Of a stretch of 64,000 nt of DNA, positions 7,400 through 60,314 are shown one piece after another. Position 1 is the first letter of the stretch. Each line of letters begins with the position of its first letter. Origin of the DNA: Chiloscyllium plagiosum (lineage: Eukaryota); assembly GCF_004010195.1 (NCBI RefSeq), contig NC_057718.1, positions 55,839,862 through 55,903,861 on the forward strand. Reading direction: 5' to 3'. The notes below the pieces were generated by a model. The model saw nothing but the letters and a program-made list of their open reading frames with translations. It was not told where the DNA came from and did no database searches. The position numbers and the translations under genes are program-made.

Positions 7400-9365
7400 A
7401 CATTATTATGATATATTATGGTAAGGGTGGGTTGAATTGCGAGAATGATATACATCCTGATTTCTGGAGCTGCCAGCCAATCTGATGGGCTAGTAGCTCC
7501 AACAACAGATCCAGATTGACCTCCACCAATCGTACTGAGCATCACAGATACCAGTCTTCAGCCAATTTCATTCAGTACATTTGTTATGAGGAAACGGTTG
7601 GAGGCACTGGATATTGCAAAGACTAGAAGCTCTGACAAAATTCCGGCAATAATATCGAAAACATGTGCTTCAGAACTTGCTGCTCCCCTCACTTAGCTCT
7701 TCCAGTACAGTTCAATATTGGCATCTATCTGATAATGTGGAAAATTGCCCAGGTATGTCCTGATTGCAAAAGACAGGACAAATCTAACCCATCCAATTAC
7801 TGCCCCTTCAATCTACTCTTGATCATCATTAAAGTGATGGAAGGTGTCAAGCAAATGCTATATAGCATCTGTTCAGCAATAACCTACTCAGCAGAGCCCA
7901 GTTTGGGTTCTGCTTGGGCTGTTTAGCTCTTGACCTCATTACAGCCTTGATTCTAACATGAACAAAAAAGCTGAATTCCAGAGGTGAAGTGAGAGTGACG
8001 GCCTTTGATATCAAGGCTGCATCTGACCAATTATGGCTTCAAGGAGCCCGAGCAACACTGGAATCAATGGATAATGGGGAAAAACTCACCACTGGTTGGA
8101 GTCATGCCTGACACATAGGAAGACAGTTGTGGTTGTTAGAGGTCAGGCACCTCAGCTCCAGAACATCTCTGCAGGAGTTTCTCAGGGTACTGTCCTCGGC
8201 CCAACGATCTTCAGCTGCTTCATCAATGACCTTCCCTCCATCATAAGGTTGAAATGGGAATGTTTGCCGATGATTGCACAATGTTCAGCACCATTTGCAA
8301 CTCCTAAGATACTGAATCAGTCCACGTTCAAATGCAACAATATCTGGGCAATATCCAGGCTTGGGCTGACAAGTGCCAAGTAACATTTGCATTACACAAA
8401 TGCAAGGGGAATGACCATCTCCAATAAGAGGTTTAACTATGTCCTTTGACATTCAATGGTGTAACATCAATGAGTCACCCATCCTTGGGATTACCATTGA
8501 CCAGAAACCCAACTGGACTCACCACATAAACACTGACTACAAAAGCAAGTTAGATGCTGAGAATACCACAGCGCATAACCCACCTCCTGACTCTCAAAGC
8601 CTGTCTATCATCTACAGGGCACAAGTCAGGAGTGTTATGGAATATTCCCCACTTCCTGACATTATCCAGGACAAGCCAAAAGTGAGGACAGCAGATGCTG
8701 GAAATCAGTGTCTAGATTAGAGTGATACTGGAAAAGCACAGCAGGTCAGGCAGCATTCGAGAAGCCGGAGAATCGACATTTTGGGCAAAAGCTCTTCATC
8801 AGGAATGAGGGCAGGGAGCCTCCAGGGTGGAGAGATAAATGGGAGGGGGGGGTGGGGTTGGGGTGAAGGTAGGAAGGAAGATTATCAGGTAGGACAGGTC
8901 ATGAGGATGGTGCTGAGCTGGAAGGTTGGAACTGGAGTAAGGTAGGGGAGGGGAAATGAGGAAATTGGTGAAGTCCACCTCATTATCCAGGACAAAGCAA
9001 TCCGCTTCATTGGCACCACATTCACAGGCATCCACTCCCTCCACCACTGACTATGTACAAGAGACAATGCAGAAATTCATCAAAGATCCTTTCACAGCTC
9101 CATCCAAACCCATAACCACTTCCATCTTGAAGGACAAGATGCAAGTTCTCCTCCAAGCCACTCACCCTCCTAACTTGGAAATATACCACCTGACTCTGGG
9201 TGAAAATCCTCGAATCTCCCCCAATGGCTTTGTTGATCAACCTACAGCACATGAACTGCAGCAGTTCAAGAAGGCGGCTCACTACCACCTTCACAAGGGC
9301 AGCTAGGGACAGGCAAGCAACGCTGACCATCCAGTGATGCTCGCATCTCACAAATGAATTAAAAT
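7400..9365 (+). mobile_element. Degenerate CR1/L2-group LINE ORF2 (RT) plus 3' tail, interrupted by a Penelope fragment
   Basis: Frameshifted RT motifs WKIAQVCP..K.QDKSNPSNYCP, DIKAA, GVSQGTVLGPTIFSCFINDLP, FADD and VRSVMEYSP. Start position approximate. Confidence 0.85.
8675..8980 (-). mobile_element. Penelope-like element 3' fragment with tail and degenerate hammerhead motif
   Basis: 15 bp TSD cattatccaggacaa at 8660-8674 and 8981-8995. Homologous to the 3' UTRs of the GIY-YIG copies at 36095 and 48493. Confidence 0.85.
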
Positions 9366-18961: not shown

Positions 18962-19230
18962 TGATTTGGAGATGCCGGTGTTGGACTGGGGTGTACAAAG
19001 TTGGTTTTTGTGATTTACACATGAAAGAAGTGAAACTATCACTGTATTCTAACAGATGAAAGGCTTAACAGACGATCAATTTTTCAATGTATAATTTCAG
19101 TTACATCACACTGCAAATTTTTGCTATAAATTCTGTGTTACGATCGAGCCCTCCACAATCACCTGATGAAGGACCATCGCTCCGAAAGCTAGTGTGCTTC
19201 CAATTAAACCTGTTGGACTATAACCTGGTG
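18962..19230. mobile_element. Penelope-like insertion (second family): about 41 bp inverted tail plus forward 3' segment with hammerhead motif
   Basis: 12 bp TSD tcctaagagttc at 18950-18961 and 19231-19242. CTGATGA...GAAA core at 19163-19187. Assignment rests on the hammerhead and long TSD because no ORF is included. Confidence 0.75.
19160..19194 (+). ncRNA. Minimal type I hammerhead ribozyme motif
   Basis: CAC-CTGATGA-aggaccatcgctcc-GAAA-GC-TA-GTG. Stem I is CAC/GTG, stem II gga/tcc, and stem III is a loopless palindrome (AGCT). Confidence 0.7.
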
Positions 19231-19384: not shown

Positions 19385-20890
19385 AAATTGCGGTCTTTGA
19401 AGAAGGAGGCCACCTGGGTTGTTCGGTATTGGAATTGGTCCTCCTGGGAGCAGATGCAGCGAAGGCGAAGGAATTGGGAATATGGGATGGCGTTTTTACA
19501 GGGGGCAGGGTGGGAGGAGGTGTAATCTAGGTAGCTGTGGGAGTCAGTCGGTTTATAGTAAAGGTCCATGTTTCCCTCCCCACCCCTATCAGCGTTCCGG
19601 AAAGACCACTCCCTCCGCGACTCCCTCGTCAGATCCACACCCCTCACCAACCCAACCTCCACTCCCGGCACCTTCCCCTACAACTGCAAGGAATGCAAAA
19701 CTTGCACCCACACCTCCCCTCTCACTTCCCTCCAAGACCCCAAGGGATCCTTCCATATCCATCAGAAATTCACCTGCACCTCCACACACATCATTTGCTG
19801 CACCCGATGTGGCCTCCTATACATTGGGGAGACAGGCCGCCTACTTGCGGAATGTTTCAGAGAACACCTCTGGAACACCCGCACCAACCAACCCAACCGC
19901 CCCGTGGCTGAACCCTTTAACTCCCCCTCCCACTCCACCAAGGACATGCAGGTCCTTGGCCTCCTCCATCGCCAGACCATGNNNNNNNNNNNNNNNNNNN
20001 NNNNNNNNNNNNNNNNNNNNNNNNNNNNNNNNNNNNNNNNNNNNNNNNNNNNNNNNNNNNNNNNNNNNNNNNNNNNNNNNNNNNNNNNNNNNNNNNNNNN
20101 NNNNNNNNNNNNNNNNNNNNNNNNNNNNNNNNNNNNNNNNNNNNNNNNNNNNNNNNNNNNNNNNNNNNNNNNNNNNNNNNNNNNNNNNNNNNNNNNNNNN
20201 NNNNNNNNNNNNNNNNNNNNNNNNNNNNNNNNNNNNNNNNNNNNNNNNNNNNNNNNNNNNNNNNNNNNNNNNNNNNNNNNNNNNNNNNNNNNNNNNNNNN
20301 NNNNNNNNNNNNNNNNNNNNNNNNNNNNNNNNNNNNNNNNNNNNNNNNNNNNNNNNNNNNNNNNNNNNNNNNNNNNNNNNNNNNNNNNNNNNNNNNNNNN
20401 NNNNNNNNNNNNNNNNNNNNNNNNNNNNNNNNNNNNNNNNNNNNNNNNNNNNNNNNNNNNNNNNNNNNNNNNNNNNNNNNNNNNNNNNNNNNNNNNNNNN
20501 NNNNNNNNNNNNNNNNNNNNNNNNNNNNNNNNNNNNNNNNNNNNNNNNNNNNNNNNNNNNNNNNNNNNNNNNNNNNNNNNNNNNNNNNNNNNNNNNNNNN
20601 NNNNNNNNNNNNNNNNNNNNNNNNNNNNNNNNNNNNNNNNNNNNNNNNNNNNNNNNNNNNNNNNNCTTAACCTCCTTCCACCTATCGTATTCCCAGCGCC
20701 CCTCCCCCAAGTCCCTCCTCCCTACCTTTTATCTTAGCCTGCTTAGCACATCTTCCACATTCCTGAAGAAGGGCTTATGTCCGAAATGTCGATTCTCCTG
20801 TTTCTTTGATGCTGCCTGACCTGCTGCGCTTTTCCAGCAACACATTTTTAAACTCTGATCTCCAGCATCTGCAGTCCTCACTTTCTCCTA
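19385..20890 (+). mobile_element. Penelope-like retroelement with inverted 5' part (19385-19567 minus) and GIY-YIG region plus 3' UTR (plus), spanning a gap
   Basis: Minus strand reads YYKPTDSHSYLDYTSSHP..CKNAIPYSQFLRLR. Plus strand reads CTRCGLLYIGETGRLLAECFREH. Degenerate hammerhead at about 20758-20795. Ends cactttctccta. Confidence 0.92.
19982..20665. other. Assembly gap (N run)
   Basis: Seen directly. Confidence 1.
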
Positions 20891-22391: not shown

Positions 22392-23540
22392 TGTTATGGA
22401 CTAGGCCAGACCCCACAAAACATTTTTAAGTAGATAGCCCAGACTGTAACTTTGTTATTTGTTTCCAAAAGAGAAAATGCTGGAAAATCTCAGCAGGTCT
22501 GGCAGCATCTGTAAGGAGAGAAAAGATCTGACGTTTTGAGTCTAACTGACCCTTTGTCAAAGCTACAAAAAGGGGAGAAATAGGGAGGTATTTATACTAG
22601 GCTGAGAGAAGATGAGTCATGGCTCCAGAAGCAAAGGTAGCAATAAAGAGGTGATAATGACAGTGCATAGAGAGATTATAGGGAGAGTAGCAAAGGGGGA
22701 AGAGGAGAGGAAAAAGGCGATGAGAGAGTGGGGAGTGAGAGGAAAAGAGACAATCAAGAAATAAGAGGTACAGAACAGTGAAAAAAAATTTTAAAAAGAT
22801 AGATAAAATAAATGAAATAAAATTACGGAGCAGAATGAAAACAGAGGGGTCTAGATAGGATAATCATCTGAAGTTGTTGAATTCAATGTTGAGACCGGCA
22901 GGCTGAAACATGTCTAGTTGGAAGATGAGATGCTATTTCTCCAGTTTATGTTGAGCTTCACTGGAACATTGCAGGAGGCCAAGGACAGACATGTGGGCAT
23001 GGGAGCAGGATTGTGTGTTGAAGTGGCAAACCACGGGAAGATCCGAGACCTGATTGAGTACAGACCAAAGGTGGTCAGCAAAGCGATCACCTAGTCAGCG
23101 TTTCCTCTTTGATATAGAGGAGAGCAACGAATGCAATAGACCAAATTGAAAGAGGTCTTTTATGTTTTGTTATTTGTTTAGCTAGATGTATGGTGGATAT
23201 TCCAAGTGTAAATTTAGCTGGGTCGACTGCCAAGTTTTAAACAAACAAGATTTATTTACAAAATTGCAGAACGAAACACAAAGAATAGAAAACAAAATAC
23301 CGTATAACTTAACGTTTCCAAACCTGACTTAATGATGTTGTTCTAAAAATACGTGCAACAGTTCCAATGCACACATCCCTTAGCACAAAAGATAAAATCA
23401 AACAAAGACTTACAGTTTGGAAGGAGAGAGAGACGTCATCCCCTGCTGCAACTGAACCAAAAGAACCACACCAACCAGGACTGGCCACTCCACTTTCATT
23501 ATACATGTTATTTCTAAAACATGAAAGCCTTTGGCCTGAG
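22392..23540. mobile_element. LTR-like repeat related to the 12088 solo LTR, opposite orientation, interrupted by a Penelope
   Basis: 22392-22460 is the reverse complement of about 12670-12735, and 23470-23505 matches about 12260-12315. Far end approximate. Confidence 0.7.
22465..23165 (-). mobile_element. Penelope-like element (third family), GIY-YIG C-terminus plus 3' UTR
   Basis: 14 bp TSD tttgttatttgttt at 22451-22464 and 23166-23179. Minus strand gives PVVCHFNTQSCSHAHMSVLGLL. Decayed hammerhead TTGACAA-AGGGTC.GACT-CAAAACGTC at about 22530-22562. Confidence 0.85.
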
Positions 23541-23740: not shown

Positions 23741-24140
23741 CCGTTGCTTTTATCCGTTGCTCCCGATGCAGTCTCCTCTACATTGGGGAGACTGGGCACC
23801 TCCTAGCAGAGCGCTTTAGGGAACATCTCCGGGACACCCGCACCAATCAACCACACCGCCCCGTGGCCCAACATTTCAACTTCCCCCTCCCACTCTGCCA
23901 CGGACATGGAGGTCCTGGGCCTCCTTCACCGCGGCTCCCTCACTACCAGACGCCTGGAGAAAGAATGCCTCATCTTCCGCCTCGGAACACTTCAACCCCA
24001 GGGCATCAATGTGTTATCTCTCCACGCTTCAGGCTCACTGCCTTTATTTCTGATGAAGAGCTTTTGCCTGAAACATCGATTTCGCTGCTCCTTGGATGCT
24101 GCCTGAACTGCTGTGCTCTTCCAGCACCACTAATCCAGAA
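23741..24140 (+). mobile_element. Penelope-like element 3' fragment (GIY-YIG), internally deleted 3' UTR
   Basis: CSRCSLLYIGETGHLLAERFREH. 14 bp TSD tgctgcttttttat at 23727-23740 and 24141-24154. CTGATGA-AGAGC-TTTT-GCCT-GAAACATC motif at about 24050-24078. Confidence 0.92.
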
Positions 24141-25887: not shown

Positions 25888-27204
25888 ATGGGAAACAGGG
25901 AAGTCTGGCTGTCTGGGTACAGAATTGGCTGGCCCACAGAAAACAGAGGGTGGTGGTAGATGGAAAGTATTCAGCCTGGAGCTTAGTAACTAGTGGCGTT
26001 CCGCAGGGTTCGGTTCTGGGACCTCTGCTCTTTGTGATTTTTGTAAATGACCTAAATGAGGAAGTGGAAGGGTGGGTTAGTAAGTTTGCCAATTACACAA
26101 GGTTTGGTGGAGTTGTGGAAAGTGTGGAGGGCTGTTGTAGGTTGCAACGAGACATTGACATGATGCAGAACTGCGCTGATAAGTGGCAGATGGGGTTTAA
26201 TCCATAAAAGTATGAATTGATTCACTTTGGAAGATCAAATTTGAATGCAGAGTACAAGGTTAAAGGCAGCATTCTTGGCAGTGTGAAGGAACAGAGGAAT
26301 CTTGGGGTTCATGTCCATAGATACCTCAAAGTTGCCACCCAAGTTGATAGGGTTGTTAAGAAGGCGTACGGTGTGTTGGCTTTCATTTACAGGGGGATAG
26401 AGTTTAAGAACTGCGAGGTTATGCTATAGCTCTATAGTGCCCTGGTTAGACCACACTTGGAATATTGTGTTCAGTCTTGGTCACCTCCTTATAGGAAAGA
26501 TGTGGAAGCTTTAGAGAGAGTGAAGAGGAGATTTACCAGGATGCTGCCTAGACTGGAGAGCATGTCTTATGAATAAAAGATTGAGGGAGCTAGAACTTTT
26601 CTCATTGGAGCAAAGGACGATGAGAGGTGACTTGATAGAGGTGTAGGAGAAAGTGAGGTCTGCAGACGCTGGAGATCAAAGCTGAAACTTTATTGCTGGA
26701 ACAGCACAGCAGGTCAGGCAGCATCTAGGGAACAGAAGATTCGACGTTTCGGGCACATGCCTGAAGAAGGGCATGTGCCCGAAACGTCGAATCTTCTGTT
26801 CCCTAGATGCTGCCTGACCTGCTGTGCTGTTCCAGCAATAAAGTTTCAGCTTTGATAGAGGTGTACAAGATGATGAGAGATATAGATAGAGTGGATAGCT
26901 AGAGTTTTTCTGATGGTTGAAATGTCTATCACGAGGGACATAATTTTAAGGTGATTCGAGGAAGGTTTAGGGGAGATGTCAGAGGTAGGTTCTTTACACA
27001 GAGTGTGGTGGGTGTGTGGAATGCACTACCAGCAGTGGTAGTAGAGTCAGATACATCAGGGACATTTAAGCAACTCTTGGATAGGCACATGGAAATTAGT
27101 AAAATGAAGGGTATGAAGATTAATCTGGTCTTAGAGTAGGATAAAAGGTTGGCAAAACATTGAGGGCTGAAGGGCCTGTACTGTGCAGTACTGTTCTGTG
27201 TTCT
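25888..27204 (+). mobile_element. Younger CR1 LINE (5'-truncated) inserted in the old CR1
   Basis: GVPQGSVLGPLLFVIFVNDL and related motifs. TSD atgtaag at 25881-25887 and 27205-27211. Tail tgttctgtgttct. Confidence 0.9.
26646..26851. mobile_element. Penelope-derived palindromic insertion (87 bp perfect arms, hammerhead core at the loop)
   Basis: Arms at 26675-26761 and 26770-26856 are exact reverse complements. 14 bp TSD ttgatagaggtgta at 26632-26645 and 26852-26865. Confidence 0.93.
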
Positions 27205-31643: not shown

Positions 31644-31862
31644 GATGATGGAAATGTGTTGCTGGAGAAGCGCAGCAGGTCAGGCAGCATCTAGGGAACA
31701 GGAGAATCGACGTTTCGGGCATTAGCCCTTCTCCTGAAGAAGGGCTAATGCCCGAAACGTCGATTCTCCTGTTCCCTAGATGCTGCCTGACCTGCTGCGC
31801 TTCTCCAGCAACACATTTCCATCTCTGATCTCCAGCATCTGTAGACCTCATTTTCTCTTCAA
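31644..31862. mobile_element. Penelope-derived palindromic insertion (86 bp perfect arms) in the Gypsy protease region
   Basis: Arms at 31647-31732 and 31738-31823 are exact reverse complements around loop cctga. 15 bp TSD agaagtttagcatta at 31629-31643 and 31863-31877. Confidence 0.93.
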
Positions 31863-35954: not shown

Positions 35955-36150
35955 ATACTTAATAGTAAGGTCCTGGGGAGTGTTGCTGAACAAAGAGACT
36001 TTGAAGTGCTGGTTCATAGTTCCTCAAAAGTGGAGTCCCGGATAGATAAGACAGTGAAGAAGGCTTTGGTATGCTTGCCTTTATTGGTTAGTGCTGAAAA
36101 TGTGTTACTGGAAAAGCGCAGCAGGTCAGGCAGCATACAAGGAACAGGAG

Positions 36151-36186
36151 AATCGACGTTTCAGGCATAAGCCCTTCCTCAGGAAT
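36151..36186 (-). ncRNA. Minimal hammerhead ribozyme motif in Penelope 3' UTR
   Basis: Minus strand ATTC-CTGAGGA-AGGGC-TTAT-GCCT-GAAA-CG-TC-GATT. Confidence 0.65.
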
Positions 36187-36772
36187 GAGGAAAGTGTGTC
36201 CAGTAGGCTAAGATAAAAGATAGGGAGGAGGGACTTGGGTGAGGGGCTTTGGAAATGCGATAGATGGAGGGAGGTCAAGGTGAGGGTGATAGGCCGGAGT
36301 GGGATGGGGGCGGAGAGGTCAGGAAGATGATTGCAGGTTAGGAAGGCGGTGCTGACTTCGAGGGATTTGACTGAGACAAGGTGGGGGAGGGGAAATGAGG
36401 AAACGGGAGAAGTCTGAGTTCACCCCTTATGGTTGGAGGGTTCCCAGGCAGAAGATGAGGTGTTCTTCCTCCAACCGTCGTGTTGCCATGGTCTGGCGAT
36501 GGAGGAGTCCAAGGACCTGCATGTCCTTGGTGGAGTGGGAGGGGGAGTTAAAGTGTTGGGCTACGGGGTGGTTGGGTTGGTTGGTCCGGGTGTCCCAGAG
36601 GTGTTCTCTGAAACGTTCCGCAAGTAGGCGGCCTGTCTCCCCAATATAGAGGAGGCCACATCGGGTGCAGAGGATGCAATAGATGATGTGTGTGGAGGTG
36701 CAGATGAATATGTAGCGGATATGGAAGGATCCCATTGGGGCCTTGGAGGGAAGTAAGGGAGGAGGTGTGGGC

Positions 36773-48268: not shown

Positions 48269-48818
48269 AAGGGGAGGGGAAATGAGAAAACTGGAGAAAT
48301 CTGAGTTCATCCCTTGTGTTTGGAGGGTTCCTAGGCGGAAGATGAGGCACTCTTCCTCCAACCGTCGTGTTCCTATGGTCTGGCGATGGAAGAGTCCAAG
48401 GACCTGCATGTCCTTGGTGGAGTGGGAGGGGGAGTTGAAGTGTTGAGCCACGGGGTGGTTGGGTTGGTTGGTCCGGGTGTCCCAGAGGTGTTCTCCAGTT
48501 TCCTCATTTCCCCTCCCCCCACCTTGTCTCAGTCAAATCCCTCGAACTCAGCACCGCCTTCCTAACTTGCAATCTTCTTCCTGACCTCTCCGCCTCCACC
48601 CCACTCCAGCCTATCATCCTCACCTTGACCTCCTTCCACCTATCGCATTTCCAACTCCCCACCCCCAAGTCCCTCCTCCCTCCTCCCTACCTTTTATCTT
48701 AGCCTGCTGGACACAGTTTCCTCATTCCTGAAGAAGGGCTTATGCCCCGAAACGTCGATTCTCCTGTTCCTTGGATGCTGACTGACCTGCTGCGCTTTTC
48801 CAGCAACACATTTTCAGC
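48269..48818 (+). mobile_element. Penelope-like insertion with inverted GIY-YIG part (about 48269-48494 minus) joined to forward 3' UTR
   Basis: Minus strand AQHFNSPSHSTKDMQVLGL...LGTLQTQGMNSDF. Forward part ends aacacattttcagc. Confidence 0.92.
48724..48760 (+). ncRNA. Minimal hammerhead ribozyme motif in Penelope 3' UTR
   Basis: ATTC-CTGAAGA-AGGGC-TTAT-GCCCC-GAAA-CG-TC-GATT. Confidence 0.65.
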
Positions 48819-59560: not shown

Positions 59561-60024
59561 CAAAATTTATCCAGCCCCTCAGAACAGCCAGAAAGGCTGT
59601 CAGAAACCGTGGGTTTTCTCCCGCTGTATAGCACGAAGAATCCCAAGAGTCTGAGATGGACGCAGCCGATGTCACAGCCTTGATACCATTACCGCCTAAA
59701 GAGGAGGAGGAATTTCTTCCGAGATGCTCTGGGCGCAAGATCTGGTACATGCTGCCCAAGTCAGAGTCAGTGGAACTAGACCTGGTGTGAAAATGTCCCA
59801 GGAGAAGCTACAAAAGAAAGTACAGGCCTGCTTCCAGATAGATTAAATGAGCTCTTCGTGGGACTTTAGCCTCTTTCTTGAGGAACTTCCCATCTTCATG
59901 GACAAGGGGCATCCTCCAATAATAACATCCCCTCTCTCCCTCACTCCACACGGGTTTACTACTTTAAAAGAAATTATGAATTCCATACCAACCACACTAT
60001 TAAATGGGCAGTGTATTATTGGAG

Positions 60025-60110
60025 CTGAAAATGTGTTGCTGGAAAAGCGCAGCAGGTCAGGCAGCATCCAGGGAACAGGAGAATCGATGTTTCGGGCATA
60101 AGCCCTTCTT
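60025..60110 (-). mobile_element. 86 bp Penelope 3' fragment running from the hammerhead core to the short 3' end
   Basis: 16 bp TSD cagtgtattattggag at 60009-60024 and 60111-60126. Sequence corresponds to one arm of the 31644 palindrome family. Confidence 0.92.
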
Positions 60111-60314
60111 CAGTGTATTATTGGAGTCAGTTGAACTAATAACAAACTCAATTTATCCTTAATTATGGGGTGAGCTCTAGAAGATGGTGGGCTAGTCCGA
60201 TGTTACAGGACCACCACCAAAAACACACCCAGCAAAGGTATGTAATACTCAGCCCCCTAGCTTACTGAGCTTTGCTCACTAGTTTGTCACATGAGAAAAA
60301 TATTGAAGTGTGAA

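Follow-up and report, generated by a model that had tools for sequence, protein, structure and literature searches.

How does the hammerhead-bearing terminus of an EN+ Penelope-like element come to be present twice, head to head, as an insertion of 206 bp? The question is raised by a locus of Chiloscyllium plagiosum located in a stretch of 64,000 nucleotides of contig NC_057718.1, which is referred to below as the window. A reading of the sequence alone had proposed two origins for such hairpins, namely cDNA synthesis from both target ends that stalls at the ribozyme fold, or a non-autonomous hairpin family. The follow-up described here identifies the locus as an ordinary member of a published architecture which carries a testable clue to the mechanism of integration. 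As far as the available text of the in vitro study of Anolis Poseidon (PAc) goes, the later steps of integration were left unvalidated (PMC11167929). The anatomy of the hairpins bears on how Penelope-like elements complete integration, and on why an inverted pLTR and a one-sided tail result. The explanation that we consider probable is a single Penelope-like insertion with priming on both nicked strands, run-off of the cDNAs at the 5′ end of the RNA, and joining by microhomology.

Anatomy of the locus

The 87-nt arms of the palindrome are exact, 26770-26856 being the reverse complement of 26675-26761 in the window sequence, and they enclose an 8-nt loop, TGAAGAAG, as had been described from the sequence alone. 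The claimed 14-bp target site duplication (TSD), TTGATAGAGGTGTA, is likewise found at both ends (Table 1). Because the final 5 nt of the right arm are also the initial 5 nt of the TSD, the insert proper spans 26646-26851. A tail had been noted on one side only, which is correct, but its length is about 35 nt rather than 29 nt, the latter being the unpaired part. Element positions are counted from the C of CUGAAGA, which is set to 0.

Table 1. Features of the locus and of the second hairpin in the window (window coordinates).
Feature	Position	Strand	Remarks
Left TSD copy, 14 bp	26632..26645	+	final base shared with the long RT start site (1-nt overlap)
Long arm with tail, from the long RT start site	26646..26761	-	element +124 to +9
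Tail, about 35 nt, from the short (+89/90) to the long (+124-126) start site	26646..26680	-	29 nt unpaired in the hairpin
Head-to-head junction	26760..26761		2-nt microhomology CC; long arm stops at +9, short arm runs from -1
Short arm, from the short RT start site	26760..26851	+	element -1 to +90
Minimal type I hammerhead remnant	26761..26792	+	motif scan; stems judged from the parent copy
Right TSD copy	26852..26865	+	initial 5 nt common to target and element (priming microhomology)
Second, independent hairpin, TAAT subfamily	31647..31823		junction +4/-2, 86-bp arms, 5-nt loop, own TSD

The hammerhead remnant retains CUGAAGA, a 4-bp stem II and GAAA-CG-UC, with a predicted cut after 26788, and has lost the 5′ strand of stem I. 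A complete ribozyme is present on neither strand: stem I is reduced to 1 bp on the + strand, and the - strand lacks CUGAAGA. When a minimal type I hammerhead is defined by the core together with stems I and II, the parent copy qualifies with 4-bp stems and the locus, devoid of stem I, does not. At gathering score, Rfam gave zero matches in the window, the remnant included.

Perfect palindromes in the window (arms of at least 18 nt, loop below 60 nt) are limited to the locus and the second hairpin of Table 1, both of one family. Single copies of this family lie at 8679-8807, 20756-20890, 24050-24126, 36093-36187, 48723-48818 and 60023-60113, the last of which begins at position 0 and has a TSD of 16 bp. 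Hammerhead-like ends of two further Penelope-like families were seen at 19163 and 22478-22536, and the family at 19163 is also paired head to head genome-wide.

An assembly artefact appears unlikely, because paralogous empty sites carry a single target and the left junction has no second occurrence in the genome. The host repeat, which we take to be a CR1-like LINE remnant, has the target once in its other copies (15 rows from 13 distinct loci); a search for the left junction gave a single site even with one mismatch permitted. When DNA reads were mapped to the locus, repeats swamped the signal, and neither a read nor a contig was seen to span the palindrome. The locus is one ordinary, young example of its class of hairpins.

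Parent element

Copies with the variants of the locus run upstream into an ORF with a GIY-YIG domain (PF01541, 22.9 bits; cut-off 22.6). The translation of such a copy has a C-X4-C-X2-C motif in the RT-EN linker, in agreement with the CX2-5CxxC zinc finger of Neptune/Nematis, the putative clade of the family. Hammerhead and tail are found both after the 3′ UTR and ahead of the ORF start. The ORF begins about 36 nt downstream of the tail, and hammerhead and tail therefore stand at both ends of the unit. The parent, for which a Penelope-like origin had previously been suggested, is thus an EN+ Penelope-like element, with a C-terminal GIY-YIG, a hammerhead-bearing pLTR on both sides of the ORF, a tail, an inverted copy and a TSD. 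A frame with a YIDD motif lies 686 nt upstream of a hammerhead of the same subfamily (L101); a Pfam search for the RT gave no match for L101 and, for L046, RVT_1 at E 0.015, under the cut-off, and no intact full ORF was recovered. Both arms of the locus show 0 differences from L192, an ORF-bearing copy of the same subfamily, and the string ctttattgctgg has 22,465 matches in the genome; the variants regarded as copy-specific in the sequence-only reading are subfamily traits instead.

Other copies show peculiarities of their own. L190 and L196, which are unlinked, have a common internal deletion that fuses the ORF N-terminus to the 3′ UTR, possibly a non-autonomous derivative or a splice. In L185, L195 and L200, the N-terminal region of the ORF contains a long in-frame tandem repeat of a proline-rich 11-residue unit, which is reminiscent of the inserts known from the Penelope ORFs of rotifers. 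Units of 190-225 bp, each with hammerhead, tail and ORF start, form same-sense tandem arrays at L087-L088, L097-L099 and G000:C8:24157646-24158520, and these arrays resemble nascent retrozymes. About 580 nt downstream of the match in L091, there is a 223-residue frame that we presume to resemble a retroviral envelope protein.

Abundance and origin of the hairpins

An exact pattern search returned at least 10,090 head-to-head core sites in the genome, and its reversed control 0. Across 1,035,736 merged bases, 147 head-to-head pairs, 195 single copies and 1 tail-to-tail adjacency were sampled. Where copies had not been chosen by junction, pairs account for about a third (64 of 207 in the background and 33 of 78 in the list of ctttattgctgg matches). 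A scan of the sample for all palindromes assigned 132 of 177 to the family of the locus, and several more to other hammerhead-bearing families. A second family has 1,273 head-to-head sites; of those inspected by eye, 15 of 15 combine a long arm with a short one. Scaled up roughly from the 64 unselected pairs found per megabase sampled, the hairpins of the genome would number on the order of 100,000, and they could be a source of dsRNA.

To judge from sequence comparison, the short hairpins form anew in many subfamilies. In the tree of the arms that had been proposed as a check, a single clade is rejected (p-AU 2.7e-65; 158 arms versus 110 singles). The arms have haplotypes in common with singles and upstream-extended copies. 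Flanks are shared by 0 of 162 short hairpins, and the same junction is found in several subfamilies and in both polarities. The junction of the locus, (-1,+9), occurs 39 times in its own subfamily and 1,432 times overall; among 30 of the 39 copies that were read, a fresh TSD is present in 29 and the flanks are distinct. Taken with the 58 junction types among 92 pairs described below, these results support formation de novo and speak against the non-autonomous family in the case of the short class. That this class is such a family, or stems from many hairpin masters copied whole, is thus very improbable, even though more than 1,300 occurrences are counted for some short junctions and one joined unit has been multiplied as a whole.

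This unit is a long-armed head-to-head structure (-149/-76) with 199 copies and one junction (G000:C1:1863450-1863903, L331-L350). In a sample of 20 copies, the short arm is followed by the same host DNA in 13 and ends cleanly at the short site, with new TSDs, in 5 that look like fresh hairpins; in the other 2 the cut lies within the arm. It follows that a joined unit can be copied again, and clean progeny would look as if formed de novo, which counts against the preferred reading. The shared host DNA upstream of the unit measures at least 1.5 kb, and some of the progeny switch into the ORF sequence of the element, which hints that a second RNA took part or that the master was longer.

The two arms of a pair usually share their origin. 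Both have the same haplotype in 99 of 104 pairs, against a permutation mean of 22.6, in a test that left out 14 of 118 typed pairs with rare haplotypes, L328 and L330 among them. In L328, L330 and L313, the arms differ at linked diagnostic sites (two in L328 and L330); one RNA cannot, therefore, be the rule for all. In 131 gap-free hairpins, 109 variants are confined to one arm and 77 are shared, mostly subfamily alleles with a handful of rare ones, and in older pairs as many as 10 of 60 nt differ between the arms. Homogenisation of the arms was considered as the cause of the perfect match and rejected in view of the 109 one-arm variants, which indicate independent decay.

Outer ends

One arm nearly always issues from the long start site and the other from the short one. 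By BLAST ends, this is the case in 130 of 147 pairs, while 10 further pairs combine a long with a clipped arm; in a set of 171 short hairpins chosen mostly by junction, 162 have exactly one long arm. With 89 of 195 singles being long, independent arms would yield mixed pairs in about half. Of 49 young hairpins, 34 have a short arm that ends at +89/90 and 37 a long arm that ends at +124-126. At each outer end, 37 of the 49 share 1 nt or more between target and element, overlaps of 1-3 nt being seen at both joints. A TSD of at least 8 bp, with a mode of 14-15, flanks 115 of 143 pairs, compared with 1.2% after shuffling. The earlier proposal that cDNA is made from both target ends agrees well with the mixed arms and with the overlaps.

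Inner joint

The inner breakpoints cluster immediately ahead of CUGANGA (0-5 nt upstream), and they do so in either polarity and across many subfamilies. Located relative to CTGANGA and GUC, as had been suggested for a check, they gather near -5..0 and not at GUC. The further-reaching arm ends between -11 and +2 in 74 of 97 unselected pairs; the remaining 23 invert elsewhere, which counts against the preferred reading. Base-level scoring was possible for 92 of the 147 pairs; these fall into 58 junction types, and 26 of the 92 have inserted bases. Microhomology of at least 2 nt is present in 45 of 66 insert-free joins, where blunt joining would predict 19%.

Cleavage at GUC was rejected as the source of the breakpoint: the predicted cut shows no excess of copy ends. 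Such ends fall at the GUC site in 2 of 90 singles and 3 of 74 arms, versus 25 and 26 at -7..+1, and a pile-up of ends at +44 in this comparison is a template artefact. Self-cleavage had already been discounted in the sequence-only reading, and these counts agree. L085 and L066 are single copies whose joint with the flank lies near the predicted GUC cut, a type that is rare in the sample.

The joint could also arise from one cDNA that snaps back on stem II and copies itself, after which the other target end captures it. This would be the DNA counterpart of the self-priming that the available text of PMC3846280 proposes for rotifer Penelope. The junction of the locus is an exact GG/CC snap-back with an 8-nt loop, and the arms of a pair almost always have one haplotype. 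At junctions of this kind the short arm reaches further and the long arm is trimmed, by 25:3 in one set and 20:5 across three subfamilies, one locus being in both sets. Set against this, a cDNA from the short site cannot supply the tail, so that a second priming would still be required, and priming seems to have occurred at each of the outer ends. In 20 of 62 microhomology joins the loop, at 2 nt or less, is too tight for a fold-back; over all pairs neither arm consistently reaches further (long 36, short 51, p 0.13), and the best DNA fold predicted for the cDNA end differs from the hairpin required. Fold-back as the general origin of the joint is thus unlikely. The preferred reading leaves the polarity bias of (-1,+9) unexplained, another junction giving 15:12, and this counts against it; our best guess is that the bias reflects snap-back of the short cDNA. 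Among the hairpins listed, seven combine a trimmed arm that has TTAT with a far arm that has TCAT, the reverse occurring 0 times.

Probable position of the RNA 5′ end

The place where copies stop is likely the 5′ end of the RNA rather than a stall at the ribozyme fold, because ordinary singles and ORF-bearing 5′ copies end at the same place. Among 158 single copies, 59 end at -5..0. At the ORF start, the hammerhead is kept in 4 of 20 loci, and 3 of the 4 begin at ATTCC (L192, L196 and L204), as do the further ORF-start copies L093, L111 and L114. Others extend upstream of ATTCC, namely L094, L095, L113 and L105, the last being the fourth locus that keeps the hammerhead. The RNA may accordingly be pictured as beginning at ATTCC within TCATTCC, which we assume to be an initiator-like motif. 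An internal promoter with a start inside the pLTR has been described for Drosophila Penelope (PMC2377424, available text).

A stall or release of the RT at a structure or protein block on a longer RNA, with -4 as a stop and not an RNA end, would account for the coincidence of the pile-up with the 5′ strand of stem I, in which ATTC pairs with GAAT. Few ends, however, are found at +28 to +31, the 3′ edge of the fold, which is where a fold would halt the RT; the observed stop is at the 5′ edge, which is reached only after the fold has been copied through. Moreover, 67 of 158 singles pass the site and run beyond -8, and copies starting at the ORF end at the same base. A stall is hence improbable, and the part of the earlier proposal that invoked the ribozyme fold is not upheld.

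The 67 singles also bear on the preferred reading, and count against it: many templates must therefore carry upstream sequence, which would be expected if such singles come from priming on the 3′ copy. A G derived from the cap is not enriched in singles (2 of 8 short untemplated additions), a further point against. Among 100 matches listed, the base before ATTCC is, by eye, G in 45, A in 45 and T in 10; G at this position was tried as a trace of the cap and rejected, most of these G's belonging to a hairpin junction or TSD, with no enrichment in singles. RNA reads searched with an antisense query ending at -3 show no pile-up of starts (X22, 0 reads; X21, 690 reads, 91% of them into unrelated flanks). 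The 5′ RNA is predicted to fold no more stably than shuffles (z -1.2).

Proposed mechanism

Taken together, the following course of events would be consistent with the data. The target would receive a staggered double nick of about 14 nt, and both nicked strands would prime the RT, one at the short site and the other at the long one. With an RNA start at ATTCC, priming on the 5′ copy would yield run-off cDNAs of 90-130 nt, both usually copied from one RNA or from two RNAs of one source. End-joining by microhomology would then close the gap, sometimes after snap-back of the short cDNA. The ribozyme would be a passenger, marking the joint only because it is located at the start of the RNA.

A broader scheme is offered more tentatively, as a serious possibility for which we would not claim even odds: all insertions would be doubly primed at two fixed RNA sites, the RNA would start at the ribozyme, the hairpins, as well as the inverted pLTR and the tail throughout the Penelope-like elements, would be outcomes of one chemistry, and some joined units would act as new non-autonomous masters that move host DNA. 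If so, the commonest product would be a strong-stop-like cDNA, two of which, joined head to head, make a hairpin.

Comparison with known systems

MITEs are short, non-coding and bounded by inverted repeats. The short hairpins share neither their single lineage, nor a fixed inner structure, nor symmetric termini: they are not one clade, their joints vary and their ends are asymmetric. In LINE-1 twin priming, two primings on one RNA lead to an inversion with microhomology at the joint and a TSD. The resulting arms are adjacent, non-overlapping parts of the RNA, whereas those of the hairpins overlap over their whole shared length, and the non-overlapping inverted and direct segments expected of twin priming are not found in them.

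Non-LTR retrozymes are described as hammerhead-bearing derivatives of Penelope-like elements in the available text of 10.64898/2026.07.22.740005. Their same-sense tandem units, with a hammerhead each, differ from the locus, which is inverted and has two arms only. The minimal hammerheads of metazoan Penelope-like elements include pairs 100-700 bp apart on opposite strands (PMC4209133, in part). They have in common with those studied here the CUGANGA core, a short stem I and a palindromic stem III that needs a dimer; here, stem II has 4 bp and the locus lacks stem I. The cores of the locus lie on opposite strands and are therefore unable to pair in one RNA. Very short insertions of Penelope-like elements have been reported in an alga, the head-to-head form not being mentioned in the available text (PMC9977147).

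The closest counterparts are the insertion units of EN+ Penelope-like elements, in which an inverted, 5′-truncated pLTR is accompanied by a tail of 30-40 bp (PMC8557442, PMC3846280; for the tail, also PMC11167929; all in the text available). The head-to-head inverted copy, the one-sided tail, the TSD and the palindrome at the joint are shared with them; the hairpins differ in being ORF-less, about 200 bp long and joined near one fixed base. The inverted copy has been explained by self-priming on the antisense template (PMC3846280, in part). The architecture is thus already published. Neither the rule of one long and one short arm nor double priming with run-off was found in the main texts of the papers searched; the supplementary figures S1-S2 of PMC11167929 may bear on the question.

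For PAc, the available text of PMC11167929 describes an in vitro reaction in which both strands are nicked and extended from two internal RT start sites that bound the tail, with uncleaved RNA as template, a hammerhead at the pLTR-ORF junction and a protein predicted to dimerise. That text reports neither a difference in start site between the strands nor a joined product, while the two ends of the hairpins use different sites almost without exception, and the family of the locus has a Neptune-type linker motif. It also reports no homology at the start site in vitro, in contrast to the overlaps of 1-3 nt seen here, which counts against the preferred reading. The two start sites and the tail are those of PMC11167929, here divided between the two target ends. 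Thousands of minimal insertions furnish predictions at base level which can be checked by the existing in vitro assay: each target strand should use a different start site, and the stop should follow the 5′ end of the RNA.
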